Assembly: GCA_964429295.1 (NCBI GenBank) | Contig: CAYSBL010000012.1 | Coordinates: forward strand, 1,646-65,645 | Direction: 5' to 3' | Origin: an uncultured Rikenellaceae bacterium | GTDB lineage: Bacteria; Bacteroidota; Bacteroidia; Bacteroidales; VadinHA17 | DNA: 64,000 nt | Shown here: in pieces, positions 3,843 through 54,623 of the stretch | How the letters are laid out: every line of letters starts with the position of its first letter | Numbering within the stretch: position 1 is the first letter of the stretch | Translations under genes and position numbers: made by a program | Notes under the pieces: generated by a model | Told to the model about the DNA's origin: nothing | What the model saw: the letters and a program-made list of their open reading frames with translations, nothing else | The model's database searches: none

Positions 3843-3915
3843 TTGTTACTGGTTACTGGCTTTGCCCGCCATAGCTTTAGCGGAGGCGGGTTGCTGGTTG
3901 CCCTGCGCCCTGCGC
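3843..3915. repeat. mosaic heptamer-repeat/hairpin element abutting the cydB stop codon
   Basis: TTACTGG x2 (3846-3859). Hairpin CCCGCC(3865-3870)/GGCGGG(3885-3890). Then GGGTTGCTGGTTGC (3888-3901) and CCTGCGC x2 (3902-3915). Shares exact strings with the elements at 47843-47905, 45408-45451 and 54488-54623. Confidence 0.7.
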
Positions 3916-5046
3916 CTAATAAACATGTCCTCCCTCCTGCAGTTCATCGCCGGTTATCCTTTTCCTGTTTATTGCTTTCCAGGCGTACCATATGTATGCA
4001 ACCACGAAAGGCACTATGAATGAAACGTACATCATGGTTTTAAGTGTAAAGAAGCTCGATGAGGCCTTGTCGATGGTCAGAGAGCTTCCCGGATCGGAAA
4101 CCGAAGGATAAAATGCAGTGCCGTTGAAGCCGGCAATAAGAAAGAGTGCCATGACTGCAAGGATTGTCCCGGTTCCTGTATACCAGATTGCGGCCCTGCC
4201 GGCTTTGAACAGAGCTGTTCCAATTCCGTAAAGGACACTTACCACTCCTGCGAGGAAGATTACCAGCACAAGCGGCATTTGCCAAAGGTTGTGAAGGTAC
4301 TTGAACTTCTCCATGGTGACTGCACCTGTGTTGCTGTCGTAGGCGAATCCTTCTGAGACAAGGAGTACTATTACGAAGAACAGGAAGAAAACCAGGAATG
4401 AAAGGGAATTCATCGCCAGTTTCCTTCTCGATCTTTCATAAAGATCTTCATCATCAACGGTATTGATAATATAGAGCAGGCCGTTTGTCCGGGCCAGGAA
4501 AAGCACTGCCAGCCCGAGTGCCAGGTTTCTTGCGCTGAGAAGAGCTTCAAGACCGTGCCAGGATGTTCCCCAGCTTACCTGGTTTACCTCATTGAGGCTG
4601 AACTGTGAGCCTGTGAAGAAAGTAGCCACTGCTGTTCCGATAAGAAAGGGGCCCAGTGAACCATTGATAAAAAGGAAAGTGTCGAAAGTTTTCTGGCCCA
4701 GGATGTTGGATGGTTTAGAACGGTACTCGTAAGCAATTGCCTGAATTATGAAGCTGAAAAGTATGGCAATCCAAACCCAGTAAGCTCCTCCGAAGCTCGC
4801 AGAATAAAAGAGGGGGAATGAAGCAAAGAAAGCGCCTCCGAAAGTGACCAGGGTGGTAAAGGTGAACTCCCATTTTCTTCCCATGGCATTTACCAGCATT
4901 GATTTCTGAAGATCGTTTTTCGGAAGGGAAAAAATCATTGATTGTCCGCCCTGGACAAACATCAGGAATACCAGCAGGCTTGCCAGAAGGGATATAATGA
5001 TCCACCAGTAGCCCTGCAGGAACATATGTGAAATAATTGTTGTCAT
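3916..5046 (-). CDS. cydB: cytochrome bd ubiquinol/menaquinol oxidase subunit II
   Basis: 376-aa polytopic membrane ORF directly downstream of cydA. N-terminus (YWWIIISLLASLLVFLMFVQGGQ) and length are typical of CydB. Confidence 0.92.
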   Translation of the reverse strand: MTTIISHMFLQGYWWIIISLLASLLVFLMFVQGGQSMIFSLPKNDLQKSMLVNAMGRKWEFTFTTLVTFGGAFFASFPLFYSASFGGAYWVWIAILFSFIIQAIAYEYRSKPSNILGQKTFDTFLFINGSLGPFLIGTAVATFFTGSQFSLNEVNQVSWGTSWHGLEALLSARNLALGLAVLFLARTNGLLYIINTVDDEDLYERSRRKLAMNSLSFLVFFLFFVIVLLVSEGFAYDSNTGAVTMEKFKYLHNLWQMPLVLVIFLAGVVSVLYGIGTALFKAGRAAIWYTGTGTILAVMALFLIAGFNGTAFYPSVSDPGSSLTIDKASSSFFTLKTMMYVSFIVPFVVAYIWYAWKAINRKRITGDELQEGGHVY

Positions 5047-5058
5047 GGCGTGGTCCTC

Positions 5059-6615
5059 CTAATGTTTTGGTCCGATTTTTATCTGCCTTATCATTATTGA
5101 TACTTCTGCTATCAGCAGGACGGTAAAAAGAACTGCAAACATAATGAAGGTTGTTATTACCGATCCGGTGCTGACCCGGGTGACGGCCGTTGTAACCGGC
5201 ATGAGATCCTGGATAATCCATGGCTGGCGTCCCATTTCTGCAAGAACCCAGCCGAGTTCCCCTGCTACATATGGAAGCAGGATTGAAAAGAGGGCGAGCC
5301 AAAGGAACCAACTATTTTTTCTGAGAGTTCCACGGAACAGGAAAACCAGGGAGAGGAAGAATATCAGTATAAAAAGGAATCCGAGCATCACCATAACGTG
5401 GAAAGTGTAGAATGCGACCTTCACACCCGGGATAACGTCTTCCGGGCTGTTAAGCGATGCATAGCCGAAATACCTGAAATTATCTTCCATGAATTCCCTG
5501 TCGCTGAATAATGCAGCGATACTTTCGGCTTTCCGGGTGTCGTTGCTTTTCCTGGCCTCTTTGTATTCTATAAGAAGGTCGCGAGCCCTTTTTCCCCTCT
5601 CCATCTTTTCCGAAACTGAGAGCAGGCCCCTTTCGGAGTTGCCGTTTACAAGATCGTATAATCCCGGCACAAATGAATCAGCACTTCCGCCGGTCATCAC
5701 AGAAAGGAATCCGGGGATTTCTATCCTGAACGCAAAATCATTCACCGCTTTATCCCCAATCTTTTTGTCTGATTCCTTCAACAGTCCCACTGCAACCAGT
5801 CCTGCCCGCTCCTTCCCCTCGTAGAGGGCTTCAAATGCAGCGAATTTTACCGGCTGGGCCTTTGCAAGCGCTCTTGCCGAAGTATCGCCGGTGTAAACCA
5901 CTAGGAGGGATGACAGCAGACCAAATATGCCTGCTACCAGAATACTTCTTTTAGCAAGGAGAATCTCGCGGTTTTTAAGGAGGTAATATGCACTTATTCC
6001 AACCACGAACATCGATCCCAGGAGGAAGCCTGAAGAAATGGTATGAAGGAACTTGGTGACAGCCACTTCATTGAAAAGAACATCCCAGAAACTGACCATT
6101 TCATTTCTTGCAGTTTCGGGGTTGAAGACCATTCCGACGGGGTTCTGCATCCAGGCATTGGCGACCAGGATCCATAATGCTGAAAGATTGGCACCGACAG
6201 CCACCAGCCATGTGGAAACGAGGTGGGCCTTTTTGCTAACCTTGTTCCAGCCGAAAAACATCACGGCAACAAAAGTCGATTCAAGGAAAAAGGCAAGTAT
6301 GCCTTCAATGGCAAGGGGTGCGCCAAAGATATCCCCGACAAACCAGGAATAGTTTGACCAGTTGGTGCCGAATTCAAACTCAAGGATCAGTCCGGTTGCC
6401 ACGCCGATCGCAAAATTGATCCCGAAAAGAGTCATCCAGAATTTTGTCATACGCTTCCATTCCTCATTACCTGTCTTTACATAGATAGTCTCCATTATTG
6501 CCAGGATAAATGAAAGACCCAGAGTAAGCGGAACGAAAAGCCAGTGGTATATGGCCGTAAGTGCAAACTGTGCCCGCGACCAGTCCACGAGGGATAAGTC
6601 TAAACTTTCAAACAT
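5059..6615 (-). CDS. cydA: cytochrome bd oxidase subunit I
   Basis: 518 aa. N-terminal LSRAQFALTAIYHWLFVPLTLG, a long Q-loop and the EMGRQPWIIQ motif are characteristic of CydA. Confidence 0.95.
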   Translation of the reverse strand: MFESLDLSLVDWSRAQFALTAIYHWLFVPLTLGLSFILAIMETIYVKTGNEEWKRMTKFWMTLFGINFAIGVATGLILEFEFGTNWSNYSWFVGDIFGAPLAIEGILAFFLESTFVAVMFFGWNKVSKKAHLVSTWLVAVGANLSALWILVANAWMQNPVGMVFNPETARNEMVSFWDVLFNEVAVTKFLHTISSGFLLGSMFVVGISAYYLLKNREILLAKRSILVAGIFGLLSSLLVVYTGDTSARALAKAQPVKFAAFEALYEGKERAGLVAVGLLKESDKKIGDKAVNDFAFRIEIPGFLSVMTGGSADSFVPGLYDLVNGNSERGLLSVSEKMERGKRARDLLIEYKEARKSNDTRKAESIAALFSDREFMEDNFRYFGYASLNSPEDVIPGVKVAFYTFHVMVMLGFLFILIFFLSLVFLFRGTLRKNSWFLWLALFSILLPYVAGELGWVLAEMGRQPWIIQDLMPVTTAVTRVSTGSVITTFIMFAVLFTVLLIAEVSIMIRQIKIGPKH

Positions 6616-6618: not shown

Positions 6619-6846
6619 CTAAGGTTGTTTTATTAGTTGTTCCAGAACGTGTTCACTGCGCTGCTCATCCGTCCGGTAGTTCTTCCTGAGGAAATCAGGG
6701 AAAAAGAACAGTTTCAGGATAATGAAAATAACAAACAACTTGATCAGCAAAATGATCCAGATGCGTTTGCCCCACCACGACATTGTTGTGAAGCCTTCAT
6801 AGTAGAACCTGAATACCCTGTTAAGCAAAGAAACAAATGAGTTCAT
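6619..6846 (-). CDS. DUF4492-like small membrane protein preceding cydA
   Basis: 75 aa with one TM (WIILLIKLFVIFIILKLFFF). Sits immediately upstream of cydA, as is usual for the Bacteroidota DUF4492 family. Its ATG overlaps the stop of the upstream AI-2E gene (ATGA). Confidence 0.7.
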   Translation of the reverse strand: MNSFVSLLNRVFRFYYEGFTTMSWWGKRIWIILLIKLFVIFIILKLFFFPDFLRKNYRTDEQRSEHVLEQLIKQP

Positions 6847-8063
6847 AATATTTCCTGCTGGTTTTCCTTCGCCTGCCCAGGTTTCCTCCTTCGCTTCCTC
6901 TTGATTACAATTCCCTGGGGGCCCTGAACAAATGATTCTTCCCCTTCCTGATTCTCATCAGACAGGCTTGAAGTTATTTTCTGAATAGCCTTGAATCCAT
7001 AAAAGAACTCCCTTGCAAACACCCTGAGAACCGTGTAGGTGGGTATTCCAAGAAGCATTCCCGGAATTCCGGCAGCGAACCCGGCAGCCAGGACTACAAT
7101 AAAGATCTCAAGCGGATGCGCCCTGACGCTGTTTGAGAATATTACAGGCTGGAATATTATATTGTCAATCAGCTGCGTTACAGCCACCACTAACATCATG
7201 TACATCACCATCGGAACCACCACAGTCGAAAAATCGAGGTTAATATGGGTGGCTATGCCCATTATCATCACAATAAAAAAACCGAGCCAGGGGCCTACAT
7301 ATGGGATAATGTTGAGTGTACCGACAATCAGCCCCATAACCAGAGCCTGCTGGAACTCTATACCGGTTATTGTCATTCCGATTGTAATCAGAATCATTAT
7401 GCAGGTGCTCTGGATAACTATTCCGATAAGGTACCTTGTAAGAAGCTGCTTGATGGAATTAAGCGCCCTGGTTACGTTTTCAACGTAATTGTCGGGTATC
7501 CACATCAGGATCGATTCATAGAAAAGATGCTGGTCCTTGAGAAAGAAGAAAGTAATGAAAGAGATAGAGAATGCCGCCACGGCTATATTACCGAGAACAC
7601 CAACCATCGATCCCATGAAATTCTGGATCACCTCTATATTAAGAACGCTTTCTATCTTGGAGGCAATGTAATCGGTAACTGAAAGCTTGCCTGAAATATT
7701 GGGATTAATAGTGGTAACAATCTCTTCGATCTTCTTTACCGGCCCCTCAATCAGATCCACTATTTTGGACCCGTCGATTGTCGAAAGGTAATTTATCTGC
7801 CTGGTTATAAGGGGGATGAAGACATACAGAAAGAGAGCTATCAGTCCCCATATGACAAAAAGCGTCAGCAATGCACTCAGGGCTCTCGGAAACTGCCATT
7901 TTCCGATTCTGATACGGCTTAAAAGGTCAACCAGGGGCCGGCCCATAACCGAGAGAACCCCGGATACAAGCACATAGACAACAATGCTCCTGAAGTACCA
8001 GAGTAAGAAAAGAAAAAGAATGACGCCCAGAATGATCAGGATGGTCCTAATAGAGGTTTTCAT
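6843..8063 (-). CDS. AI-2E family transporter (PerM/UPF0118)
   Basis: ORF 6843..8090 starts at TTG; the first ATG at 8063 gives MKTSIRTILIILGVILF. Eight or so TM segments and a conserved C-terminal half (IPYVGPWLG, LGIPTYTVLRV) are typical of AI-2E transporters. Has a basic, low-complexity C-terminal tail. Confidence 0.85.
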   Translation of the reverse strand: MKTSIRTILIILGVILFLFLLWYFRSIVVYVLVSGVLSVMGRPLVDLLSRIRIGKWQFPRALSALLTLFVIWGLIALFLYVFIPLITRQINYLSTIDGSKIVDLIEGPVKKIEEIVTTINPNISGKLSVTDYIASKIESVLNIEVIQNFMGSMVGVLGNIAVAAFSISFITFFFLKDQHLFYESILMWIPDNYVENVTRALNSIKQLLTRYLIGIVIQSTCIMILITIGMTITGIEFQQALVMGLIVGTLNIIPYVGPWLGFFIVMIMGIATHINLDFSTVVVPMVMYMMLVVAVTQLIDNIIFQPVIFSNSVRAHPLEIFIVVLAAGFAAGIPGMLLGIPTYTVLRVFAREFFYGFKAIQKITSSLSDENQEGEESFVQGPQGIVIKRKRRRKPGQAKENQQEIL

Positions 8064-8220: not shown

Positions 8221-8290
8221 AACGATAATTTTTTTACCCAAAACGATAAGCTGGTTATTGTTTTACGATAATTTTTTTACCTGAAACGAT
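8221..8290. promoter_or_regulatory. phased ACGATA hexamer array (two 27-nt direct repeats) upstream of the AI-2E/cydAB unit
   Basis: ACGATAATTTTTTTACCCAAAACGATA (8221-8247) and ACGATAATTTTTTTACCTGAAACGATA (8264-8290) match at 25/27. ACGATA starts at 8221, 8242, 8264 and 8285, a spacing of 21, 22 and 21 bp. Confidence 0.45.
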
Positions 8291-8364
8291 ATGTATTTCA
8301 AAAGGCGTGAAGGCATTGGGGTCATGGTGTAATGACTGCCTACTACTCCCTGCCAGCTGCCATT

Positions 8365-36050: not shown

Positions 36051-36060
36051 GGTAATTATT

Positions 36061-39198: not shown

Positions 39199-39248
39199 TT
39201 TGCAATGCCTTTATCATCCTATCTTCAACACTAACAAAAAAGGAGGGG

Positions 39249-39256
39249 CAAAGTTA
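39249..39256 (-). promoter_or_regulatory. candidate -7 box for copA
   Basis: The reverse strand reads TAACTTTG, an exact TAnnTTTG match, about 50 nt upstream of the copA ATG. Confidence 0.35.
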
Positions 39257-39284
39257 AATCAATGATGTTAAAACCAACGGGATT

Positions 39285-41235: not shown

Positions 41236-41238
41236 TAC

Positions 41239-42390: not shown

Positions 42391-42748
42391 ATTAAATCCT
42401 CCATTAATTATAAATGACAATAAATACTGGGGCAAATGTAAAATCTGGACTTTTTTTTTAAAAACCATTTTTTTTAAAATACTCTGCAGATTCTCTTAAA
42501 TTTTTGTTAAAAATCATCTTGCGCAACGACAATTGATTCCCAACGTCTGGATTTTTGCAGGGGAATACGGCCTTTACCATATTAATCTCTGATCAGTGAC
42601 TTCAGAGCAGGAGATAATAGAAGGACCTGCACTCCAAATATTTGATGAATTTTTGAATCGGCTGAATGCCTCAGTCCGCAAGCCGGATAACAAGATGCGA
42701 TATTTAATATATTAGCAGCATAATTATAATTCTAATCTGATAAAGAAA

Positions 42749-43198
42749 ATGTCACTCACAGAGAAAATTGCAGCCGATCTGATAACAGCCATGAAATCGA
42801 AGGACACGGTATCTCTTGAAGCCTTAAGGGCAGCAAAAACAGCTTTCCTTCTTGCTCATTCTGAAAAGGGCTCAGAAAGTGTTCTGACACCCGAGGAAGA
42901 GATCCGTATAATTCAGAAGCTTGTAAAGCAGAGGCGCGAATCAGCTCAGATCTACAGGGATAACAACAGGGCCGATCTCAGTGAAAAGGAGAGCGCTGAA
43001 GCCGGAGTTCTCGAAAAATATCTTCCGGCTAAAATGAGCGGGGAAGAAATGGAATCAGCAGTCAGGTCTATTATAGAACGAGTCGGGGCAAAATCCGTAT
43101 CCGATCTCGGAAAGGTTATGGGCCCGGCAATGAAAGAGCTGGCCGGCAAAGCCGATGGAAAAGAGATATCAGCAGTTGTTAAAAAGCTGCTGGGATAA
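42749..43198 (+). CDS. GatB/YqeY domain-containing protein
   Basis: 149 aa. MSLTEKIAADLITAMKSKD...LEALRAAK...IYRDNNRADLSEKESAE...LEKYLP is typical of YqeY. Confidence 0.9.
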   Translation: MSLTEKIAADLITAMKSKDTVSLEALRAAKTAFLLAHSEKGSESVLTPEEEIRIIQKLVKQRRESAQIYRDNNRADLSEKESAEAGVLEKYLPAKMSGEEMESAVRSIIERVGAKSVSDLGKVMGPAMKELAGKADGKEISAVVKKLLG

Positions 43199-43209
43199 AG
43201 ACAGAAATT

Positions 43210-43263
43210 GTCGTGCAGGTCGTGCAGGTTATGCAGGTCGTGCAGGTCGTGCAGGCCGTGCGG
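43210..43263. repeat. 9-mer tandem array x6 (GTCGTGCAG)
   Basis: GTCGTGCAG GTCGTGCAG GTTATGCAG GTCGTGCAG GTCGTGCAG GCCGTGCGG. Begins 11 nt after the yqeY-like stop codon. Confidence 0.85.
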
Positions 43264-43280
43264 ATCAATGTCACCGAAAA

Positions 43281-43315
43281 AGCTGAATGCTTAGAGCTGA
43301 TCGCAGATAGCTGAT
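43281..43315. repeat. AGCTGA(A/T) repeated three times at an exact 14-nt period
   Basis: AGCTGAA at 43281, AGCTGAT at 43295 and AGCTGAT at 43309. Lies between the 9-mer array and the GH26 stop (43325). Confidence 0.6.
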
Positions 43316-43324
43316 TGCTATATC

Positions 43325-44863: not shown

Positions 44864-44866
44864 CAG

Positions 44867-45334
44867 CTATTTCTTGTCGAAAACCATTTTCTCGCTCATG
44901 TCGCCGAATGACGAACTTGATGTCGATTCGATAACCAGGTTGCCACCGTCGAGCTTGTAGACTTCATTTATTGTGATATCACCTCCGTCTCCCATCGACA
45001 TTTTTGAAACCACCTTCAGGCTGGTCTTGTCATCCGACCAGGTGCATGTGGATTTCTTCTGCATGTCCTGAAATACGGTATTCGTACATTCCTTACCGTC
45101 GAGTGTTAATTTGTCAGTGCTGACAAATTCCTGTCCCTGGAACTCGGAATGCTTTTCGACCGAAAGGTCATTTCCATTTTGTACGACAATAACATTTTTG
45201 GGAGCCATTGAAAATTCTGCGCCAAGGGTGCTTTTGGATGTGTTCAGCGTCCATGTTCCGCTGAAATCAGGAGCCTGTGCAAAAATAGCTGCTGAAAACA
45301 ATACAGCGACAAAAGAAAGTAAAATCTTTTTCAT
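44867..45334 (-). CDS. secreted small beta-rich protein (lipocalin-like), paralog of the GH26 C-terminal domain
   Basis: 155 aa with signal peptide MKKILLSFVAVLFSAAIFAQA. FSGTWTLNTSKS ... LTLDGKE ... WSDDKTSL parallels FTGEWRLNESES ... IKLDGSD ... WSAERDSL in the GH26 C-terminus. Confidence 0.55.
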   Translation of the reverse strand: MKKILLSFVAVLFSAAIFAQAPDFSGTWTLNTSKSTLGAEFSMAPKNVIVVQNGNDLSVEKHSEFQGQEFVSTDKLTLDGKECTNTVFQDMQKKSTCTWSDDKTSLKVVSKMSMGDGGDITINEVYKLDGGNLVIESTSSSSFGDMSEKMVFDKK

Positions 45335-45407
45335 GATACGAATTGTCTAAGGTTGATAATAAGAAATATTAATACATATTGTTTGTGCGATTGAAATCAT
45401 TTTGAAG

Positions 45408-45451
45408 TTGCTGGTTGCTGGCGGTACGTGGCCAACTGCCAACTGCCAACT
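45408..45451. repeat. heptamer arrays TTGCTGG x2 and GCCAACT x3 flanking a short spacer
   Basis: TTGCTGG TTGCTGG CGGTACGTG GCCAACT GCCAACT GCCAACT. Lies 20 nt downstream (sense) of the stop of the TIM-barrel gene. The arms are only partly complementary (about 4-5 of 7 per heptamer). Confidence 0.8.
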
Positions 45452-45471
45452 TCTCTTCCTTTCCTTGCCGA

Positions 45472-46344
45472 CTATTTTTTATATGGTCCGGTTACTCTTC
45501 TCAGAAGGGCAATTGTTGCCTTTATACCCTCATCTTCACTCAGCTTGTTGCCTTCATATTCAACATCAATATATCCCCTGTATCCCGAGTCGTAAACGAT
45601 TTTCATCATTTTCTCGTAATCGATCTGGGTTTCATTTCCGTTTTCATCGAAATCATGGGTTTTTCCGCTAACACCCTTTGCATAGGGCATAAGTTCCTGC
45701 ACTCCCTTGTACCGGTCGTATTCATAGAAATTGCCAAGGTCGGGGAGTGTGCCGCAGTTAGGCTTATTGATGCATTTCATTATCTCGGCAAGCCATTTCC
45801 CGTAGGATGAATTCCCTCCGTGGTTTTCGACTATGACATTTATCCCGTAACCTTCGGCATAGGCGGCCAGTCTTCCAAGCCCGTCTATTGCTGCTTCCTG
45901 CATCTGCCCCATTGTTCCGCGACCGGCAGCATTTACCCTTATCGAATGGCAGCCAAGGAATTTGGCGGCCTTCACCCATTTGTGATGGTTCTCAATAGCT
46001 TTGTTCCTTGCCGCCAGTGAGGTATCTGCAAGATTTCCTTCCCCGTCAACCATTATAAGAAGGCTTTTCACACCGTACTTCTCACATTCATTTTTTAGCT
46101 GGGTAAGGTATTCCATATCTTCAGCCTTCCCCTTGAAGAAGGTGGAAACATATTCAACTGCATCAAGGCCATAGGTCTCCTTTGTAATCCTTGGAAAATC
46201 CATGTTCGTAATGGTTCCCTTCCTGAGGGTCCGGTTCAGCGACCACTCGGCAAGTGAAATTTTGAAGGCTGGTTCCTGCCCGTAAAGGCCGAGGCAGGTT
46301 AACATGGATATAAGTACAAATGTAACGATCGGTTTGATTTTCAT
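45472..46344 (-). CDS. xylose isomerase-like TIM-barrel protein (sugar phosphate isomerase/epimerase family) with signal peptide
   Basis: 290 aa. N-terminal MKIKPIVTFVLISMLTCLGLYGQ. The body (HSIRVNAAG ... VIVENHGG ... PDLGNFYEYD ... YIDVEYEG) is typical of the AP-endonuclease-2/xylose-isomerase TIM-barrel fold. Confidence 0.82.
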   Translation of the reverse strand: MKIKPIVTFVLISMLTCLGLYGQEPAFKISLAEWSLNRTLRKGTITNMDFPRITKETYGLDAVEYVSTFFKGKAEDMEYLTQLKNECEKYGVKSLLIMVDGEGNLADTSLAARNKAIENHHKWVKAAKFLGCHSIRVNAAGRGTMGQMQEAAIDGLGRLAAYAEGYGINVIVENHGGNSSYGKWLAEIMKCINKPNCGTLPDLGNFYEYDRYKGVQELMPYAKGVSGKTHDFDENGNETQIDYEKMMKIVYDSGYRGYIDVEYEGNKLSEDEGIKATIALLRRVTGPYKK

Positions 46345-46382
46345 TTTTTATGGATTTAGAGTTTGTAATAGCATCTGAATGC

Positions 46383-46390
46383 CAAATTTA
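46383..46390 (-). promoter_or_regulatory. candidate -7 box for the TIM-barrel gene
   Basis: The reverse strand reads TAAATTTG, an exact TAnnTTTG match, about 40 nt upstream of the ATG at 46344. Confidence 0.35.
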
Positions 46391-46470
46391 TATAAAAGGA
46401 TCAAACGCTCTTCAGTAATTGCCGTTTAAAAGATATTATTCTCCGGTCACCGGCTTTTCCACCTGTGCAG

Positions 46471-47829
46471 CTATTCTATATGCCTGTTATTTACAATCAC
46501 ATTCGTGAGGGTGAATCCCTGAACAACATCTCTGTTAAATGTGTCGTTCTCGGCTTCGATCGACAGATCCCCGAAGGTAAATGAAGAGAGCCTGTCGTTC
46601 TCAGTAATGGCCACATCGAAAAAGATCCTGCATTTCAGGTCGATATTACGCATGACTATATTTTCTGAATATGAAACCGGGATATCCTTTCTGCCTTTCA
46701 GGTCGAAAAACTGGGTCCAGGGCTTGATATATATGAGGCTGTGTGCTTCGCCGGTGATATTTTCCACTGTGATATACTCGTATTTCTGAGGGGTGTCGGG
46801 CCTCATCTTCAGCCAGAGCACCCTCATTGCCTGATCGATCCGGCAATCGCGCATTAATATGTTCCTGTTGTGGATTGATTCACTGCCGCATGTCAGGGCA
46901 GAATGGCAAAATCCGAAATTGCATTTCTCTATCAGGATATTGAGGTTTTCGCCGTTGCATTCATCGGTGTCAGCCCAGGGTCCTTTGCCTCCCTTCAGGG
47001 CTATTGCGTCGTCGTTCACCGACATGTAGCATCCCCTGACGTGAACATTGGAGCAGGCATCAATATCGATAGCATCGGAGCTCGGAGCCTTGACCTTGTC
47101 GTGTGGTGAAAAAATATGAAGATCGAGGATTTTTACATTGCTGCATTTATAATAGTGGCTTGTCCAGAATCCGGTGTTGTGCAGGCTGACATCCTGTACC
47201 CTGACGTTATTGCAGTCTCTGATGAACACCAGCCTCGGCCTTGAAACCTCCAGGTTGGTGCACATGGGATTTTCCATCCTCCTCTGCCAGAAGGCCTGCC
47301 AGAATTTGAAACCATTCCCGTCAATTGTACCCTTCCCTCCAATGGTGAAACCGTCCACGCCATATGCATTTACAAGTGCCGGGTAATAATCGAGACATTG
47401 TCCTTCCATCCTCGAAGACATTAGCGGATAATCGGCTATATCGTCCGAACCTTTAAGTCTTGCTCCCTCAAAAAGCCATAAACTGGTCCCCTTTTTGAAA
47501 AACAGGGCGCCCGACATAAAAGTCCCTCCGGGGATCACAATTACTCCTCCGCCCTGCTGCGAAGCTGTATCGATCACTTTCTGAATTTCAGCAGTCTGAA
47601 TGATGGTGCTGTCGGAAAGCACTCCGAAATCGGTAAGCAGGAACTGCCTGCCAAGGTCGCCGGGCGTGACTTTAGTAGTGTCCCTGAACCAGTCAGGTAT
47701 CGGAGTTCCGTCGGGGAAAAGATCCTGAGCGTTCCCTCCAGAACATCCCGACACCACCAATACCATGATTAAAAGTGCCCGGGACAAGGCTGGAATAAGG
47801 TGAATTTTGGATATCATGATCATAAGCAT
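46471..47829 (-). CDS. glycoside hydrolase family 28 (polygalacturonase/rhamnogalacturonase-like) lipoprotein
   Basis: Lipobox LVVSGCSG. Parallel beta-helix repeats carry SSDAIDIDACSNVHVRGC and VNDDAIALKGGKG, the GH28 catalytic Asp motifs. Confidence 0.85.
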   Translation of the reverse strand: MLMIMISKIHLIPALSRALLIMVLVVSGCSGGNAQDLFPDGTPIPDWFRDTTKVTPGDLGRQFLLTDFGVLSDSTIIQTAEIQKVIDTASQQGGGVIVIPGGTFMSGALFFKKGTSLWLFEGARLKGSDDIADYPLMSSRMEGQCLDYYPALVNAYGVDGFTIGGKGTIDGNGFKFWQAFWQRRMENPMCTNLEVSRPRLVFIRDCNNVRVQDVSLHNTGFWTSHYYKCSNVKILDLHIFSPHDKVKAPSSDAIDIDACSNVHVRGCYMSVNDDAIALKGGKGPWADTDECNGENLNILIEKCNFGFCHSALTCGSESIHNRNILMRDCRIDQAMRVLWLKMRPDTPQKYEYITVENITGEAHSLIYIKPWTQFFDLKGRKDIPVSYSENIVMRNIDLKCRIFFDVAITENDRLSSFTFGDLSIEAENDTFNRDVVQGFTLTNVIVNNRHIE

Positions 47830-47842
47830 TTAATAATTAAAG

Positions 47843-47905
47843 TTGCTTCTTGCTTGCTTTGCCCTCTGAACTTCAGCGAAAGAGGGTTGCTGGTTGCTGC
47901 TTGCT
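47843..47905. repeat. mosaic heptamer-repeat/hairpin element, homologous to the one at 3843-3915
   Basis: TTGCTTC TTGCTTG CTTTGCC. Hairpin GCCCTCT(47861-47867)/AGAGGGT(47881-47887). Then GGTTGCT GGTTGCT GCTTGCT. Exact shared strings with 3843-3915 are GCTTTGCCC and GGGTTGCTGGTTGC. ACTGAAG ACTGAAT follows at 47928-47941. Confidence 0.75.
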
Positions 47906-48137
47906 TGTGAGTTACCGATTTCCGAATACTGAAGACTGAATACCAGTTCCTCACTGCCAGATAACTTCTGACACATTTCCCCATAAAAATATCAAATAAA
48001 TAAAAAAAACGGCTTTGAAGAAAGGAAATGAAGATCGAATCTCAGGCAAACTATTCCCTGTATTATCTGTTATTATATTAACAGCCGTGGTACGGGCATC
48101 ACCGGGAGCGATTTTTCTTACTTTTACAATCGGATAT

Positions 48138-48198
48138 CCCTGCGGTGGCCGGGCTTTTAAAGGCTTATCCGCACGGAGGGCTTTAAACCGCCGCAGGG
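48138..48198 (+). promoter_or_regulatory. candidate structured 5' leader hairpin upstream of the 48235 operon
   Basis: CCCTGCGGTGG (48138-48148) pairs with CCGCCGCAGGG (48188-48198): 11 bp, one of them U-G. The 39-nt interior contains GGGCTTTTAAA / GGGCTTTAAA direct repeats. Ends 36 nt before the ATG. Confidence 0.3.
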
Positions 48199-48234
48199 TT
48201 AGCAGGCAACTGTATTCAGACTGTACAAGGACAA

Positions 48235-48930
48235 ATGACTAGATTTTCGTCATACCATCTTGGTATAATATTTTTTCTCATCTCACTTCCCTGCAGTCTG
48301 TCAGGGAACACAGACACGTTGCTGACACGAACCGGCGGAGAAAAAGATGCACTGCTTAACGGGAGAATCTGGTGGAACAGGAATTCAAAGGTTTCAGGCG
48401 ATCCTCATTTCATTTCGGATTCATATCTGAAAGGCAGTGTGACATTCAATGGTCAGAGCTTCGACAACCTCGACCTGAAATACGATATCTTCAGCGACGA
48501 ACTGGTATACAGGCCCGAATCACACCCGGTTATTTTTCTGAACAAGGAAATGGTGGATAGTTTTGAATTAAATCCTGGGTTACGGAAATATTTCTTTTAC
48601 AATGCAGGTATAAATCCCCGAAGCGGACCTGCCGGATATGTCAACCTGCTGTATAGTGGTCCTACATCACTTCTGGTCAAGTATGTGAAAAAGATACAGC
48701 CACTTGCCGATCAGGGAATTTATGACCTTTTCCTTCAGGTGCACAGGATTTTCGTCATTAAGGATACGGTCATTACAAGTATTGACAGCAGGAAGCAGCT
48801 TTTTGGTCTGTTTGAAGACAGGAAAAAGGACGTGAGGGAATATGTGAAAAACCATCACCTGCGCTTAACCTTGAAAGAACCTGGTTCCCTGGTGCCGGTC
48901 CTTGAATTTTACGATTCATTAACAAGATAA
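48235..48930 (+). CDS. secreted hypothetical protein (first gene of the TonB-receptor cluster)
   Basis: 231-aa ORF with an ATG start and signal peptide MTRFSSYHLGIIFFLISLPCSLSG. No recognisable motif. Confidence 0.6.
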   Translation: MTRFSSYHLGIIFFLISLPCSLSGNTDTLLTRTGGEKDALLNGRIWWNRNSKVSGDPHFISDSYLKGSVTFNGQSFDNLDLKYDIFSDELVYRPESHPVIFLNKEMVDSFELNPGLRKYFFYNAGINPRSGPAGYVNLLYSGPTSLLVKYVKKIQPLADQGIYDLFLQVHRIFVIKDTVITSIDSRKQLFGLFEDRKKDVREYVKNHHLRLTLKEPGSLVPVLEFYDSLTR

Positions 48931-48942
48931 CCGGCATCATTG

Positions 48943-51675
48943 ATGAATTTAAGGATAATAACCGGAATAATCCTGCTGTCAGTATCTCCCCTGGTCTATT
49001 CGCAGGAGGGATATCATGTGGACTGGGAATATTCCGGTCAGCCGCTTGAAATGTTTATCAGGCAGGCGGAATCAGTTCATCCTGTTAAATTCTTTTACAG
49101 GAGTGAATGGATAGCCGGCATTGTTCTAGGCAATTATCCGGGAAAAACAACTTTAGGGGCGATTCTCGACACACTATTCGCCGGCCGGAAAATTTATCAT
49201 TATGAACGCCCGGGAGGTAACATAATCCTGACCGGTGAATATGAAGTCAGGCTTCCGGGCCGGAAGAATACCGGTAAAGGGACTTTTATCCCGGCTGCCC
49301 CCGGCGGGGATGACAGTGAAACAGGCATTGCATCCGGGTCCATGGTGTTGAATATTGGAAATCCGTCTGCCGCACGGCTGCCGGGCAACGTCACTTTGTC
49401 GGGCTGGATAAGCAACCGCGACACAAAGGAAAATGTAGCAGGAGTGACTGTCCAGGTGCCCGCACTGTCAGCCGGTACTATTTCAAATGCTTACGGTTTT
49501 TACACTATATCGGTTCCCAGGGGCAGGTACTCCCTGAAGTTCACTTTTATCGGGATGAAGGAAAGGATGGTTGACGTCAATCTGTACGACAACGGGGAGC
49601 TGAATATCGATATGGCGAGTGTGCTCATTCCTTTGAAAGAGGCGGTGATTACGGCAGAAAAGGACATCACGCTTCAGAGGCCTGGCAGCGGCATCGAAAA
49701 GATAAGTGCAGCTTCATTCAGGTCAATGCCTTCGGCTATGGGCGAATCGGACATCACAAAAAGTCTTCTGCTGCTGCCCGGAGTCAATACCGTAGGTGAA
49801 GGATCTGCCGGGTTCAATGTTAGGGGAGGCTCTGCCGACCAGAACCTGGTGCTGCTTTACGGGGCTCCTCTTTACAGCACCTCTCATTTCTTCGGTTTCT
49901 TCTCAGCCGTCAATCCCGATATAATCAAAGACGTAACCCTTTACAAAGGGAGTATTCCTGCAAAGTATGGCGGCAGGCTTGCTTCAGTTCTTGACATATC
50001 ACCCCGGGACGGCAGCAGAAGCGAGTTTTCGGGCAGCGCCGGCATCAGTCCTGTTACAGCACATTTTACTATTGAAGGCCCGTTAATTGCGGACACGCTG
50101 TATTATCTTATTACCGGCCGCAGGACCTATTCGAACTGGATCCTGAGACTCCTTGAAGACCCGTCGCTACGGGACAGCAGGGCCATGTTCCAGGACTTTA
50201 ACGCAAGATTAGCCTGGGATCGGGGAAAGAAGGACAGGATTGATCTCTCGGGGTATTTGAGCAATGACTCGTTCAGGCTCAACTCCGACACAACCTACAA
50301 ATATATGAACAGTATTGTCTCTCTGCGATGGCGACACTATTTCAACAGCCGTTTCTTCTCCTCCCTGACCTTAAGCAACAGCAATTACAATTATAACATA
50401 TCAAGCATAAGGGTGCCGGAGGAAGCTTTTTCATTAAGGCACAGGATTAACACGACCGGTCTGAAGGTCGATTTTAACTGGTTCAGGGGAAGGAACGAGA
50501 TCAACTTCGGAGCTGACCTGATGAGGCACAGTGTCGTCCCCGGCGACTATCTGCCTGGGGATAAAGCCTCGCTGGTGATCCCCAATTCGATTCAGAGACA
50601 AAAGGCGCTGGAAACTGCAGTCTGGCTCGAAGATAATTTCACTGTCACCGGGTCTTTGTCGGTAAGCGGAGGAATAAGGCTGGGAACTTTCCATGCCCTT
50701 GGCCCCCAGACAGTCATATCCTACAACCCAGGCTTTCCCCGGGATATTGACTCTGTGAGCGACACACTTACTTTTGCCGGGAATAAGATATACAGGAGTT
50801 ATGCAAGGCCCGAATACCGGTTTTCGGCGAACTTCAGAACCGGGATCAATAGTTCTTTCAAGCTCAGCTACAATCACACCAACCAGTATCTTCACCTGCT
50901 GACCAACACCACAGCGATATCGCCAACCGACACCTGGAAGCTGAGCGATTACCATCTAAGGCCGCAGTCGGCAGACCAGTTTGCGGCGGGATTCTATAAA
51001 ATGCTGAATAAAAACCGTATAGAAGCCTCTGTTGAGATCTACTACAAGAACATAGAAAATATGATCGATTTCAAGGGTGGCACCGATCTTATCATGAATG
51101 AATATATTGAAAGAGACCTCGTGAATGTGAGGGGAAAAGCTTACGGGATGGAAATGCTTCTCAGGAAACCCGAAGGAAGGATAAGATGGAGTGCCGGGTA
51201 TACCTTGTCGAAAATCCTTGTAAAGAACAAGACAAGTTTCGAAGAGGAACTGATAAACGCGGGCAACTGGTTTCCGGCCAGCTTCGACAGACCTCATGAC
51301 CTGATACTTACCTTTAATTATATCCACTCGCGCCGGGTAAGCCTTTCAGCAAATTACAACTACACTTCAGGTCGTCCGGTCACCTATCCGGTTTCGACCT
51401 ATTCGATAGGCGATGTGGTGCTGATGCACTATTCGGACAGGAACAAATACAGGCTTCCATATTATTCGAGGCTCGATGTTTCTGTGAGAATTAGCGGCGA
51501 CCTCAGGTCGAAAAAGCTGGCAAATCCTTATTGGGTCTTTTCTATCTACAATGTAACCGGAAGAAAAAATGTTTATTCAGTATATTTTGAAAACGAAAGA
51601 GGCATGGTGAGGGGCTACTACCTTTCGGTTTTCGGCAGACCCATTCCGTCACTTTCACTGAACTTCGATTTCTGA
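48943..51675 (+). CDS. TonB-dependent receptor with N-terminal extension and CarboxypepD_reg-like domain
   Basis: ORF 48940 is TTG, so ATG 48943 is taken. Signal peptide; an ~100-aa N-terminal domain that looks STN-like by eye (tentative); CarboxypepD_reg segment LSGWISNRDTKENVAGVTVQV. Plug (MGESDITKSLLLLPGVNTVGEGSAGFNVRGG) and a C-terminal barrel ending in F. Confidence 0.88.
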   Translation: MNLRIITGIILLSVSPLVYSQEGYHVDWEYSGQPLEMFIRQAESVHPVKFFYRSEWIAGIVLGNYPGKTTLGAILDTLFAGRKIYHYERPGGNIILTGEYEVRLPGRKNTGKGTFIPAAPGGDDSETGIASGSMVLNIGNPSAARLPGNVTLSGWISNRDTKENVAGVTVQVPALSAGTISNAYGFYTISVPRGRYSLKFTFIGMKERMVDVNLYDNGELNIDMASVLIPLKEAVITAEKDITLQRPGSGIEKISAASFRSMPSAMGESDITKSLLLLPGVNTVGEGSAGFNVRGGSADQNLVLLYGAPLYSTSHFFGFFSAVNPDIIKDVTLYKGSIPAKYGGRLASVLDISPRDGSRSEFSGSAGISPVTAHFTIEGPLIADTLYYLITGRRTYSNWILRLLEDPSLRDSRAMFQDFNARLAWDRGKKDRIDLSGYLSNDSFRLNSDTTYKYMNSIVSLRWRHYFNSRFFSSLTLSNSNYNYNISSIRVPEEAFSLRHRINTTGLKVDFNWFRGRNEINFGADLMRHSVVPGDYLPGDKASLVIPNSIQRQKALETAVWLEDNFTVTGSLSVSGGIRLGTFHALGPQTVISYNPGFPRDIDSVSDTLTFAGNKIYRSYARPEYRFSANFRTGINSSFKLSYNHTNQYLHLLTNTTAISPTDTWKLSDYHLRPQSADQFAAGFYKMLNKNRIEASVEIYYKNIENMIDFKGGTDLIMNEYIERDLVNVRGKAYGMEMLLRKPEGRIRWSAGYTLSKILVKNKTSFEEELINAGNWFPASFDRPHDLILTFNYIHSRRVSLSANYNYTSGRPVTYPVSTYSIGDVVLMHYSDRNKYRLPYYSRLDVSVRISGDLRSKKLANPYWVFSIYNVTGRKNVYSVYFENERGMVRGYYLSVFGRPIPSLSLNFDF

Positions 51676-51676
51676 C

Positions 51677-52807
51677 ATGAACAGGTTTATACTTATACTT
51701 GCAGCTATCCTGTTTGCGGCCGCAGCCGGATGCACGATCGAGTTCATACCCGGACAGGATGAAAATGATAAAACACTTGTTGTGGAGGGAATGATCACCG
51801 ACCAGGACAGGGTGAACCGGATAAGGATTTCACGATCACAGCCCATTGGTGAAATGCTGAGAAATAAGATACCGGTTACCGGAGCGCTGGTCAGCATTAC
51901 TGATAATGAAGACAATATCACTTCACTGACGGAATCCCCTCCCGGAACCTATTGCACCGATTCGCTTCAGTTCAGGGGCCGGGTGGGAGCATCGTATTCA
52001 CTCCGGATATTCGTTGGAGGCAGTGAATACGAGACTGATTTTATGGAGATGAAACCGGTTCCGGCAATCGATTCGCTTTATTACGAAAAAGTCCGTATAA
52101 ACAACGATAAGGATACTATTTATATCGACGAGGGAGCAAGTATTTATGCCGATACCTGGGATCCATCCGGGAAATGCCTTTTCTACAGATGGGATTACAT
52201 AGAAACATGGGAATACCGGATCCCCTATGCCGTTACAAAAAAGGTTTGCTATATCACCGAGCGGTCCGACCGGATCCTCATAAAGAACACATCACAATTC
52301 AGCCAGGCGAGAGTGACCAGATTCCCGGTGACTTTCATAACCCACGAGACTGACAGGCTTAAAGAGAGGTACAGCATACTTCTGAGGCAATACTCCCTCA
52401 ATGAACAGGAATATAACTTCTGGAAAAGAGTCAGTGATGTATCTCAGAACGTTGGAAACCTGTATGACGTAACACCGTCATTCATCCCGGGCAACATAAG
52501 ATCATGCACTGATCCCGGGGAGACCGTTCTGGGCTGGTTCAGCGTTTCAGCAGTATCGGAAAAGAGGCTTTTCATAAAAGATCACTTCTACGGGTTGCCT
52601 CATTTCTTCACATATTGCGCCACCGACACCCTGGGAGGGTCGCTTCCCTCAACGGGATTTGAAACTGATTACTGGGTCATAGAGGATTTCAGCGATGAAG
52701 TGCCTCCTTTCTGGATAATAACCACTTACAGGGAGTGCGCTGATTGCACCATCAGAGGAACAAGCGAAATGCCGTCATTCTGGCGCGATTATCTCAGGGA
52801 CAAATGA
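51677..52807 (+). CDS. DUF4249-like lipoprotein (partner of the TonB-dependent receptor)
   Basis: Lipobox LFAAAAGC. TLVVEGMITDQDRVNRIRISRS is typical of DUF4249. Starts 1 nt after the receptor stop. Confidence 0.65.
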   Translation: MNRFILILAAILFAAAAGCTIEFIPGQDENDKTLVVEGMITDQDRVNRIRISRSQPIGEMLRNKIPVTGALVSITDNEDNITSLTESPPGTYCTDSLQFRGRVGASYSLRIFVGGSEYETDFMEMKPVPAIDSLYYEKVRINNDKDTIYIDEGASIYADTWDPSGKCLFYRWDYIETWEYRIPYAVTKKVCYITERSDRILIKNTSQFSQARVTRFPVTFITHETDRLKERYSILLRQYSLNEQEYNFWKRVSDVSQNVGNLYDVTPSFIPGNIRSCTDPGETVLGWFSVSAVSEKRLFIKDHFYGLPHFFTYCATDTLGGSLPSTGFETDYWVIEDFSDEVPPFWIITTYRECADCTIRGTSEMPSFWRDYLRDK

Positions 52808-54468
52808 TTAAGACCATAATTACACCTGTACTACTGATGCTTCTTACAGCATTTCCGGCTGCCCGGGCAACCGGAGAAGAGGTTTTGATTCTTCATACCG
52901 ACCGCCGGATGTATGTTGCAGGAGAAATCATGTGGTTCAGCATTTATGTAAGCAACTTTCAGAACGGCCTGTCAACGGCAGGAAGCAGTGTGGTCAGTGT
53001 GGAACTGGTCAATCCATGGAACATGCCCGTGGCTCAATCGCGTTTCGCCCTTTCAGACGGAAGGGGAAAAGGAGATCTTATCATCCCCGACACCCTCAGT
53101 TCCGGCACCTATCTGCTAAAGGCTTATGGCGGTCAGATAGGGAACACCCCGGCAGAACGATGCTTTATCCAGAAAATCGGGATATACAATCCATTAGCAG
53201 GCGAAGAATATTTCCGGATTACACGGAATAAATCAGGTTCCGGTTTATCTTCTGGTTTTGATTTTTCAGAAATCGAAATAATGACCGACAGTGTAAAAGA
53301 AAGAAGGGAAAGTATTAATGTAAGACTAAATACCAATTCAGGGCCTGCCGGTCTTAGTATTTCAATAGTACCCGCCGGAATTTCAGCCGGCAGTCCTGAA
53401 GCCGGACTGATGGCTGAACCAGGATATTCATCAGGATCTTTTAAGTCCGGGAATTCCGGTCATTATCTGTCCGGTTCCTTAAGATACCGTAATCCGGTCA
53501 CAACTGATTCCTCCCGTTTCCTGTATGCTTCTGTGAGAGGAAAAACTGCGGAATTCTATCATGCACGGATTGGCGTCAACGGCCGGTTCGACCTGCGCCT
53601 GCCAATAGACAGCAGGGAAAGGGTGCTTATAATCCAGCCCGGGAACGCCGGAAGCAATGTAGCACTTGAAATCGATCCATCCTTTACGTCTTTCCATGAA
53701 CGGATGGCCCTGACCCGCGACACACTTGATGAATTTCAGCGTTCAGTCTTTTCCCGGCTGAGTTTTAATTTTCAGGCTGCCAGGATTTATGGAATCCCGC
53801 TTTTCGAAAACCAACCGGAGAAAACAGAACGAGCCGCCAGGACCAGGAGGTTTTACGGTATTCCGGAGATGGAAGTCCATCTTGACGATTACATCAGGCT
53901 TCCTGTTATGCAGGAGGTGTTTTTCGAGCTGCTGCCGGGCATCATACTCAGGAACAAGGACTCCGGATATGAAATTAAAATCACAAATCCCCTTACCGGG
54001 AAGTATTATGACGAGCCTCCCCTGGTTATGATCGACGGAGTCATTATCAACGACCTTAACATTCTTGCCGGACTCGATCCCGCTAAGGTAGAAAGGATTG
54101 AAGTTGTGATGACTCCGTATCTGACTGGAGACCTGATACTTCACGGAATTGTTAATGTAATAACACTGGAAGGCGATTTCGGTGAGATGACAATGCAGGA
54201 TTATGCAGCAATACTGCCCTACAGGTCCGTGGAAGAGCCAAAGGTTTTCATCCATCCGGATTATTCGGATTCCACCTTCGGTTCAGACCATATACCCGAC
54301 CTAAGGAACACCCTTTACTGGGAGCCGTCTTTGAAAACCGATAACCGTGGCAGAGCTGAGGTTGTTTTCCGAACATCCGATCAGCCGGGGCTGTATGAGA
54401 TAACAGTTTTCGGGCTCACTGAATCCGGAAAATGGGTATATGGCTCCAGGACTTTCAGGGTGGATTGA
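52804..54468 (+). CDS. secreted protein with N-terminal MG2-like beta-sandwich and C-terminal Plug-like segment (function unknown)
   Basis: ORF 52744 trimmed to ATG 52804 (an ATGA overlap with the DUF4249 stop). Signal peptide MIKTIITPVLLMLLTAFPAARA. PPLVMIDGVIINDLNILAGLDPAKVERIEVV resembles the TonB-receptor plug core. Confidence 0.55.
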   Translation: MIKTIITPVLLMLLTAFPAARATGEEVLILHTDRRMYVAGEIMWFSIYVSNFQNGLSTAGSSVVSVELVNPWNMPVAQSRFALSDGRGKGDLIIPDTLSSGTYLLKAYGGQIGNTPAERCFIQKIGIYNPLAGEEYFRITRNKSGSGLSSGFDFSEIEIMTDSVKERRESINVRLNTNSGPAGLSISIVPAGISAGSPEAGLMAEPGYSSGSFKSGNSGHYLSGSLRYRNPVTTDSSRFLYASVRGKTAEFYHARIGVNGRFDLRLPIDSRERVLIIQPGNAGSNVALEIDPSFTSFHERMALTRDTLDEFQRSVFSRLSFNFQAARIYGIPLFENQPEKTERAARTRRFYGIPEMEVHLDDYIRLPVMQEVFFELLPGIILRNKDSGYEIKITNPLTGKYYDEPPLVMIDGVIINDLNILAGLDPAKVERIEVVMTPYLTGDLILHGIVNVITLEGDFGEMTMQDYAAILPYRSVEEPKVFIHPDYSDSTFGSDHIPDLRNTLYWEPSLKTDNRGRAEVVFRTSDQPGLYEITVFGLTESGKWVYGSRTFRVD

Positions 54469-54487
54469 AACCAAAGGCTGGACAAAG

Positions 54488-54623
54488 GGCGCAGGGCGCA
54501 GGGCACAGGGGTCAGAGCTCAGGGCACAGGGCACAGAGCGCAGGTCCCAATATTGTCCCCGGTGTCTTTTATTCTGCTGTCCTGCGCCTTGTGTCTTGCG
54601 TCTTGTGTCTTGCCTCTTCTTCC
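54488..54623 (+). repeat. heptamer-phased G-rich arm (8 x GGCGCAG-like) and CU-rich arm (6 x CTGCGCC/TTGTGTC-like) forming a long G-U-dependent hairpin, with a G4 motif
   Basis: Left arm 54502-54543 pairs with right arm 54582-54623 at 35 of 42 positions (26 Watson-Crick plus 9 G-U), with a 38-nt loop. G4 motif GGGCGCAGGGCGCAGGGCACAGGGG at 54487-54511. Begins 19 nt after the upstream stop codon. Confidence 0.75.

Follow-up and report, generated by a model that had tools for sequence, protein, structure and literature searches.

Intergenic heptanucleotide arrays in an uncultured Rikenellaceae bacterium: a lineage-specific family that very probably belongs to a described class of repeats

Tandem repeats of a heptanucleotide unit have been noticed in bacteria since about 1990, the oldest example being the STRR elements of cyanobacteria. 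The STRR heptamers of heterocystous cyanobacteria, reportedly described by Mazel et al. in 1990, are said to be dispersed over intergenic sites, to have served for strain fingerprinting, and to be built of units such as CCCCAGT, TTGGTCA and CAACAGT. Here we describe six intergenic spacers with tandem short-period arrays (L1 to L6) in a 64-kb stretch of contig CAYSBL010000012.1, hereafter the window, from an uncultured Rikenellaceae bacterium of the order Bacteroidales, and we compare them with related loci, which carry three-digit labels (L081, L201 and so on), and with the heptamer repeats known from other phyla.

As cited in later papers, heptanucleotide repeats are the most abundant category of long simple sequence repeats in most prokaryotic genomes (Mrazek 2007, via PMC4679880), and a 7-nt contact of DNA polymerase that favours slippage has been proposed as the cause of this preference (Mrazek 2007, via PMC4679880 and PMC4692102). 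In Xanthomonas and Nostoc, arrays of GGGNATC and GGGGA(C/T)T are non-coding, mostly transcribed, and form quadruplexes in vitro (Rehm et al. 2015, PMC4692102). These G-rich units lie on the coding strand just past stop codons, vary between close relatives, and where they occur in inverted arrangement could form stem-loops instead of G-quadruplexes; genome-wide analysis found no function for them, and phase variation was judged unlikely (PMC4692102). Arrays of TAACTGA in Beggiatoaceae, cyanobacteria and five Bacteroidetes are found mostly just upstream of start codons (MacGregor 2015, PMC4679880), and CspB has been reported to bind heptamer repeats with one protein per unit (PMC4679880). Geobacter metallireducens carries GGGACCG x4 at 49 sites and MTYCTGA x5 at 16 sites as putative regulatory elements (PMC2700814), and Nostoc heptamers near start codons change the expression of a reporter (bioRxiv 10.1101/2022.06.06.494920).

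The six loci of the window very probably form a lineage-specific family of heptanucleotide arrays, with a quadruplex-type subset of G3N4 units, that belongs to this already described class. Joined to an origin by slippage and exchange and to action as RNA structures, the class assignment becomes a fuller explanation, towards which we lean as a whole with noticeably less assurance. A first-pass annotation of the window had not recognised a described element family here, a judgement overturned by the published dispersed intergenic heptanucleotide arrays (PMC4679880, PMC4692102, PMC2700814). The six arrays that it listed are all real. Head-to-tail 7-nt units were found at L1, L2, L4, L5 and L6, both as period-7 rows of Tandem Repeats Finder (TRF; 3845-3859, 3900-3916, 23101-23123, 45407-45421, 45431-45451, 47885-47905, 54486-54544 and 54578-54618) and as exact runs at lag 7. 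At L3, however, the main array is a 9-mer (TRF, 43210-43261), and the only heptamer-phased part, the neighbouring L3b, is degenerate. The positions given for the arrays also stood, except that 47906-47941 and 54619-54623 are not array (Table 1). The repertoire of units is small (CAGGGCN; CAGCAAC/CAGTAAC/CAAGCAA; AGTTGGC; CAAGACR), and the architecture is modular, as had been noted, with heptamer runs placed around a GC hairpin or used as inverted arms. On its sense strand L1, for example, reads GGCGCAG x2.4, CAACCAG x2, the GC hairpin, and CAGTAAC x2 / AAGCAAC.

Exact string look-up recovered every shared string that had been quoted for these loci. An 18-mer occurs at 54488-54505 (+) and 3899-3916 (-), and a 14-mer at 3888-3901 and 47884-47897; GTTGCTGGTTGC is found also at 45407-45418, GCTTTGCCC at 3859-3867 and 47856-47864, and CAGGGCACAGGG at 54499-54510, 54520-54531 and 23102-23113 (-), with one coding match at 37999-38010 that had been overlooked. 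By an arithmetic estimate, matches of 9-12 nt are singly expected by chance in 64 kb, and the window holds a background of about 20 unrelated matches seeded on exact 13-mers. The matches between loci rank among the longest non-local repeats of the window, well apart from chance matches of 14-15 nt, and all of them fall in its small non-coding fraction: L1 and L6 share 18 nt at 100% identity, L2 and L6 share 21 nt at 95%, and L1 and L5 share 27 nt at 85%, extending to ~60 nt at 77%. Several loci also have units in common (GGCGCAG in L1 and L6, CAGGGCA in L2 and L6, GTTGCTG in L1, L4 and L5), an AGTTGGC array stands at two sites in L081, and the same units, together with a 58-nt hairpin module, were found at different sites in different species. 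The exact strings and the rank of the matches bear out the view that the loci are related and not independent microsatellites.

None of the six loci lies in coding sequence. Of the period-7 TRF rows in 151 kb of clade DNA, 19 fell in the 13% that is non-coding and two in the 87% that is coding, an array density ~64-fold higher outside open reading frames (ORFs), and across ~2 Mb of fetched loci exact runs at lags 7 and 14 exceeded those at every other non-triplet period. TRF was also run on 80 loci from other genomes, collected around an unrelated protein, and returned varied heptamer arrays from Paludibacteraceae, Prevotellaceae and other Bacteroidales (AGTTGAA, AGTTTAG, TATTCAT, AGAGTTT, and TGATGGC x17). 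Two Bacillota loci hold heptamer-armed hairpins (L005 4954-5055; L022 69-177). Against Rfam, the tRNA alone passed the gathering score, and nothing was matched at the array loci up to E = 1.

Some arrays outside the lineage deserve mention in their own right. A heptamer-arm hairpin of Sedimentibacter saalensis is built around a GC core stem and fills the space that separates two convergent genes, and another, in a Faecousia metagenome-assembled genome (MAG), has 9 G·U pairs in its plus-strand fold. Two further loci from Bacteroidales carry several arrays each, L033 (Paludibacteraceae) at 644-694, 4256-4288, 5689-5718 and 7568-7604 and L048 at 1030-1154 and 4061-4119; their units contain stop codons (AGTTGAA, AGTTTAG, AGTTTAA, TGATGGC), and the arrays often bridge the whole distance between a stop codon and the start codon that follows. 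A stop-containing heptamer present three times would close all three reading frames. The idea that heptamers act as three-frame stop carriers fits the Paludibacteraceae units (AGTTGAA, AGTTTAG) but not most units of the window, and was dropped.

The window arrays resemble those of Xanthomonas and Nostoc in their G3N4 unit, in the number of loci per genome, in their bias to non-coding DNA, in varying in length and sequence among close relatives at one and the same site, and in inverted arrangements whose possible stem-loops would compete with quadruplexes. They differ in the unit itself (GGGCRCA or GGGCTCA) and in their Bacteroidales host; the quadruplexes of the window are predictions, and at L6 and in L194 the G-rich array is paired through G·U to a complementary C/U-rich array. 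The STRR elements likewise consist of tandem 7-nt units spread over many variable intergenic sites, but their units, as they are said to read, and their phylum differ from those of the window, so that they are not relatives at the sequence level and the window loci are not STRR elements in the strict sense. Like the TAACTGA arrays, the window loci are intergenic, and the TAACTGA arrays (2-43 copies) also have other heptamers mixed in at some sites and relatives lacking the array at the same site; they differ in having one dominant unit where the window has several, in their position near start codons, shared only by L5 and L1, and in that hairpins are not a feature of theirs. The Geobacter elements also form families spread over many loci, with four to five heptamers in tandem and a G3N4 unit in one of the families, but their copy number is fixed and they occur inside genes as well, whereas the window loci are non-coding and vary in copy number.

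We compared metagenome assemblies with identical flanking proteins (n = 10 for L3, 8 for L4, 3 for L5 and 9 for L6). L3 and L4 were identical in sequence in their 10 and 8 assemblies; two substitutions were found in two of the nine L6 copies and one substitution in one of the three L5 copies, and all lengths were unchanged. L1 is the only locus that varies in length among near-identical strains. It has two alleles, one being that of the window; in the other (L162, L165), which is 37 nt longer, about 13 YAACCWG units replace the hairpin, next to a cydB that is 100% identical.

L081 is collinear with window 33260-48042 at 82% nucleotide identity, and its L4 spacer is ~97% conserved against that 82% average, except for a 14-nt (two-heptamer) insertion in the loop. 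The 9-mer of L3a has 5.8 copies in the window, 2.3 in L081 and 7 in L201, where the counterpart of L3b is a clean 8-unit array, and L5 is replaced in L081 by an AGTTGGC array. At the cydB spacer, four species (cydB of the three compared with the window being 92%, 90% and 87% identical) have four different arrays, all heptamer-phased. Array changes between relatives are thus by whole-unit steps of 7 or 9 nt or by wholesale replacement. Copy-number variation does occur between relatives, and the suggestion that these are hypermutable tracts holds at the level of species; at the level of strains it does not, L3 to L6 being nearly invariant. From these comparisons it follows that certain spacers retain an array as a lasting feature even though the array sequence is replaced. 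Such changes very probably arose by slipped-strand mispairing in a 7-nt register, supplemented by copying or gene conversion between arrays with common units.

Two alternatives can be weighed against this record. The arrays might be functionless, slippage-prone DNA that arises and decays in non-coding spacers, where selection is weak, with units shared through gene conversion and with strand and G·U biases due to a mutational asymmetry linked to transcription or replication; we regard this as the main competitor, with a modest but real chance of being right. In its favour are the rapid replacement and loss between relatives and the published genome-wide analysis, which reported no function (PMC4692102), and slippage has, in the citing accounts, been proposed to favour heptamers (Mrazek 2007, via PMC4679880 and PMC4692102). 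It sits poorly with the cydB spacer, where each of the four species keeps a heptamer array although the sequence has turned over completely, and with an L4 spacer that is more conserved than the flanking genes. Alternatively, the arrays could be contingency loci, in which changes of copy number would switch the expression of neighbouring genes. The position of L5 between a likely promoter and the GH28 start, and the dimorphism of L1 among strains with identical cydB, would suit such phase variation, which we nonetheless consider most improbable, as L3 to L6 are nearly identical in 3-10 independent assemblies each, the neighbours are housekeeping genes (cyd, ccs, yqeY, a subunit gene of the OAD type), and phase variation was judged unlikely for repeats of this kind (PMC4692102). 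A lineage-specific array family acting through RNA structure remains our preferred reading.

The first-pass annotation had placed an array just after a stop codon at five of the six loci. The distances agree (cydB 0 nt, ccsBA 22-26, yqeY 12, TIM-barrel gene 20, MG2 gene 18), but the gene before L6 is not Plug-like: it encodes a 554-aa protein with a weak MG2-domain match, and the Plug/TonB receptor lies two genes further upstream. At L3, the spacer separates the convergent genes yqeY and GH26, and each of their stop codons has one array beside it. The sense orientation claimed for the arrays stands for the G-rich ones, which are on the sense strand; other units have no consistent strand.

Only two canonical G-quadruplex motifs (G3+N1-7 x4) exist on either strand of the 64 kb, at 54487-54511 (+, in L6) and 23098-23118 (-, in L2), and each is carried by the sense strand of the immediately preceding gene, 18 nt (L6) and 26 nt (L2) past the stop. 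A scan of 12 loci from the clade and its relatives gave three full G3N4 arrays in non-coding DNA, every one of them 6-26 nt behind a stop codon on its own strand (L6 18 nt, L2 26 nt, L194:6613 6 nt). At the cydB site of three species, and behind the MG2 gene in L200, a G-rich heptamer starts directly after the stop; L1 itself has only two G3 tracts plus a GG and overlaps the TAG stop. ViennaRNA predicted that L2 forms a quadruplex, and that the left arm of L6 does so when taken alone. By their sequence, the G-rich arrays of the window fit the published pattern of G3N4 units on the coding strand past stop codons. That the non-coding quadruplex motifs and full G3N4 arrays are all on the sense strand after stops in the loci scanned is a further point against functionless DNA.

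The most elaborate structure is that of L6. Its RNA has a predicted folding energy of -68.1 kcal/mol in the sense orientation and -44.0 kcal/mol in antisense, the mean of shuffled sequences being -51.4 (z = -4.5), and in the sense fold G·U pairs number 12 and A·C mismatches 2. An element of the same design was found at another site in L194, where (CAGGGCN)x10 and then (CTTCSGT)x6.4 begin 6 nt past the stop of a flavoprotein gene; its sense strand has 14 G·U against 1 A·C. Such an excess of G·U over A·C is what selection on an RNA helix would produce, and the ratios of 12:2 and 14:1 look to be beyond mutational asymmetry alone, which again speaks against a neutral origin. At L4, heptamer arms give a shorter hairpin, predicted on both strands (z = -1.8 and -2.7).

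Two observations concern the L6 region itself. More than one metagenome contig of the species (L180 and six similar ones) starts ~40 nt before L6, at window ~54444, which suggests that short-read assemblies tend to break at its long inverted repeat. An ORF of 92 aa is predicted across the hairpin, overlapping the end of the upstream gene (window 54432-54710 (+); L171 3701-3979), and is almost certainly spurious.

Since the arrays stand just after stops and include GC hairpins, they might be intrinsic transcription terminators, but we give this little credence. A scan for a hairpin plus T run over 42000-56000, which covers L3 to L6, yielded 12 terminator-like sites and no array among them, and no T run follows the hairpins of L1 or L2 in the sequence. 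The genome does have a canonical terminator, seen after the tRNA at 22815-22850, and L1, L4 and L6 lie between co-directional genes that look co-transcribed.

In the explanation that we prefer, the arrays would be transcribed as parts of mRNAs, and G-rich arrays past a stop on the coding strand would fold into G-quadruplexes or, where the next array is C/U-rich and complementary, into a long hairpin of 7-nt periodicity to which G·U pairs contribute. A stable structure on the 3' side of the upstream cistron could shield it from 3' exonucleases or separate the fates of neighbouring cistrons, in the manner of repetitive extragenic palindromic (REP) sequences. By analogy, then, the arrays may function as mRNA structures on the 3' side of cistrons that protect or partition operon transcripts, a proposal that we advance tentatively; the role in 3'-end formation or stabilisation suggested earlier is plausible. 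Several points weigh against this reading. Transcription, 3' ends and the effect on stability are all inferred. As whole regions L1, L2, L3 and L5 fold no better than shuffled sequences (z from -0.9 to +1.6), a point that also favours functionless DNA. In full-length L6 the hairpin is predicted by ViennaRNA to beat the G-quadruplex, and the two structural readings therefore compete. L6 is absent in L001 and L201, whose spacers measure 75 and 71 nt, and the hairpin is missing in one L1 allele and in the P0004 species, indicating that some sites can do without the structure. Part of the G·U excess could come from a C-to-T bias on the non-template strand, although we take this to be the weaker alternative. 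The lack of a consistent strand relative to genes among units that are not G-rich, and the preference for 7 nt itself, are left unaccounted for.

The 58-nt hairpin module opens with heptamers and GCTTTG, after which come one side of a 6-bp stem, a loop that contains a 3-bp inner stem, the other side of the 6-bp stem, and TTGCTGGTTGC. Its core comprises a variable 6-bp outer stem, a 3x3 internal loop, the 3-bp inner stem and a conserved loop. The window species has copies in L1 and L5. A further copy occupies the cydB/L1 site of L198, and another the L4 site of L201 (P0004 species); the window species lacks the module at the L4 site, and the species of L201 lacks it at the cydB site. Two stem variants, CCCGCC/GGCGGG and CCCTCT/AGAGGG, each occur at two different sites, and double compensatory changes affect two of the stem pairs. 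The four copies, which represent three independent sites, all have their C/A-rich orientation on the sense strand of the flanking genes. A covariance model scored copy 1, which was in its training alignment, at 83 bits and, over 1.07 Mb of related loci, added no full copy to those known, leaving four distinct copies in total, two of them in the ~100 kb of the window species. Its sole extra match was to a hairpin only, at L124 1335-1365 (-), on a metagenome contig of a distant Bacteroidota. This GC hairpin, CACGCC AAAGCCTTGGCGAA GGCGTG, has a loop resembling that of the module, and heptamer-like runs on its flanks.

From these distributions, the module relocates among arrays, transposition and gene conversion via shared heptamers both being possible. 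It invites comparison with REP sequences and their mosaics, the BIMEs (PMC3733652, PMC3116915), which are also extragenic palindromes of operon spacers and 3' ends, modular in architecture and with a hypothesised role in mRNA stabilisation. A REP- or BIME-like element, or one resembling a miniature inverted-repeat transposable element (MITE), moved by a transposase such as RAYT, could thus underlie at least the module, whose core is an imperfect palindrome outside genes of the 20-40 nt typical of REPs, with two stem subfamilies and different sites in different species. We think this improbable. The two REP superfamilies are marked by a GTAG or CGTC end tag (PMC3733652), and neither tag is present on either strand of any of the four module copies, which are single and not the inverted pairs of a REPIN. 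No transposase, RAYT included, was seen among the annotated genes of the window, no target-site duplication is apparent at L5 when compared with L081, four copies in 1.07 Mb are few, and the bulk of the window elements is direct 7-nt repeats that change by unit steps and not by insertion. A bolder idea, for which we would claim only a slim chance, is that the module is an undescribed, tiny non-autonomous element that spreads from one heptamer array to another, using shared units of the CAGCAAC type as landing pads or homology arms, and that module and arrays together make up a Bacteroidales-specific post-transcriptional signal read by a protein in 7-nt register.

Protein binding can also be considered for the arrays at large. 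The L5 region is divergent, and a promoter-like stretch upstream of L5 is conserved in L081; because L5 is 14 nt upstream of the GH28 start, it probably lies in the 5' untranslated region. L5 and L1 end 14 and 42 nt upstream of starts, and their C/A-rich, G-poor sense strand should be unstructured, as would suit a binding platform for a single-strand nucleic-acid-binding protein with a 7-nt footprint (of the cold-shock-domain, S1 or RRM type), bound once per unit, that tunes translation or stability of the adjacent cistron. Binding has been proposed for TAACTGA arrays upstream of starts, CspB being reported to bind with one protein per heptamer (PMC4679880), reporter expression responds to Nostoc heptamers near starts (bioRxiv 10.1101/2022.06.06.494920), and units recur across sites and species. 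We nevertheless consider such a platform unlikely, since at least seven quite different units in one genome, and a cydB-spacer unit that differs in each species, are hard to square with sequence-specific binding; L2, L3 and L6, moreover, lie away from start codons, and no candidate protein is specifically linked to the arrays, the cold-shock-domain gene at 58417-58875 being ordinary. The resemblance of GCTGGTTG to the Chi site of E. coli, and the thought that C/A-rich arrays are loading sites for Rho, are speculation and were not used.

Table 1. Arrays, hairpins and module copies of the window (positions counted from its first base; an empty cell means that no strand is assigned)
Feature	Position	Strand	Description
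L1	3843-3916	-	begins on the TAG stop of cydB; 42 nt short of the conserved 41-aa ORF
Module copy 1	3847-3904	+	in L1; outer stem CCCGCC 3865-3870 / GGCGGG 3885-3890; inner stem GCT/AGC
GC hairpin adjoining L2	23064-23085	-	CCCCTACCTC ... GAGGAGGGG
L2	23098-23123	-	CTCAGGG x2, CACAGGG, CGGG on the ccsBA sense strand; 22-26 nt past the ccsBA stop
L3a	43210-43263	+	9-mer GTCGTGCAG x5.8; 12 nt past the yqeY stop
L3b	43280-43321	-	degenerate heptamers, NNGCTGA (+ strand) x6; 3 nt from the GH26 stop; read from the sequence
L4	45404-45453		hairpin with heptamer arms GTTGCTG x2.1 / GCCAACT x3; preceded by the TIM-barrel stop, with a 155-aa gene starting after it
L5	47843-47905	-	CAAGCAA/CAGCAAC runs around module copy 2; 14 nt upstream of the GH28 start
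Module copy 2	within L5		stem CCCTCT 47862-47867 / AGAGGG 47881-47886
L6	54480-54622	+	long 7-nt-periodic hairpin; 18 nt past the MG2-gene stop, 110 nt before OAD_beta
L6 left arm	54486-54544	+	(RGSNCAG)x8; holds the G-quadruplex motif 54487-54511
L6 right arm	54578-54618	+	(CTTGYGT)x5.7

The genes of the window annotated so far are ordinary chromosomal housekeeping genes. Directly downstream of cydB, a 41-aa ORF (MYISGILNYLIWPAFIIVSWFAVKAGLKYYEKKHPPEREES; 3676-3801 (-)) that is called as a gene in four related species is a candidate for a small cytochrome bd subunit of the CydX type. Upstream of a gene for an AI-2E transporter and the cyd cluster, ACGATAATTTTTTTACC..AAACGATA is repeated at a spacing of 43 nt (8221-8291) and, to judge from its sequence, could be the binding site of a regulator; two related species have a similar TATCGTTTTGGGTAAAAAA motif (L191 ~6720-6800, L194 ~6780-6850). 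The tRNA terminator is bracketed (22801-22935) by an inverted repeat of 20 nt without mismatches (CCAGCCAGCTTAAGCCTTTC) and, inside it, by another of 16 nt, and it looks as if the 3' flank of the tRNA had been duplicated with its terminator in inverted orientation. A 40-nt direct repeat follows (22949-22988 and 23008-23047, 93% identical), each copy being a 10-bp hairpin with a (GCGAA)n pentamer loop whose sole stem mismatch turns into a G·U pair on the minus strand, the sense strand of ccsBA. The two copies may represent a further family of small repeats. Finally, the nearest relatives of OAD_beta (54732-55868 (+)) among species genomes include Sedimentibacter (Bacillota), at 85% amino acid identity and level with Bacteroidales MAGs, which suggests horizontal transfer of the gene.

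Heptamer repeats are a class long known, and in the published cases neither the reason for a 7-nt unit nor a function has been established. The specific units found here, the two-arm elements paired through G·U and the relocating module appear not to have been described before. The lineage provides a well-resolved comparative series, in which the same spacers are seen gaining, losing and swapping arrays. It also offers two hints about the class: that G-rich arrays on the mRNA strand past stop codons may pair with downstream arrays by way of G·U, and that a small hairpin module may move among array sites.

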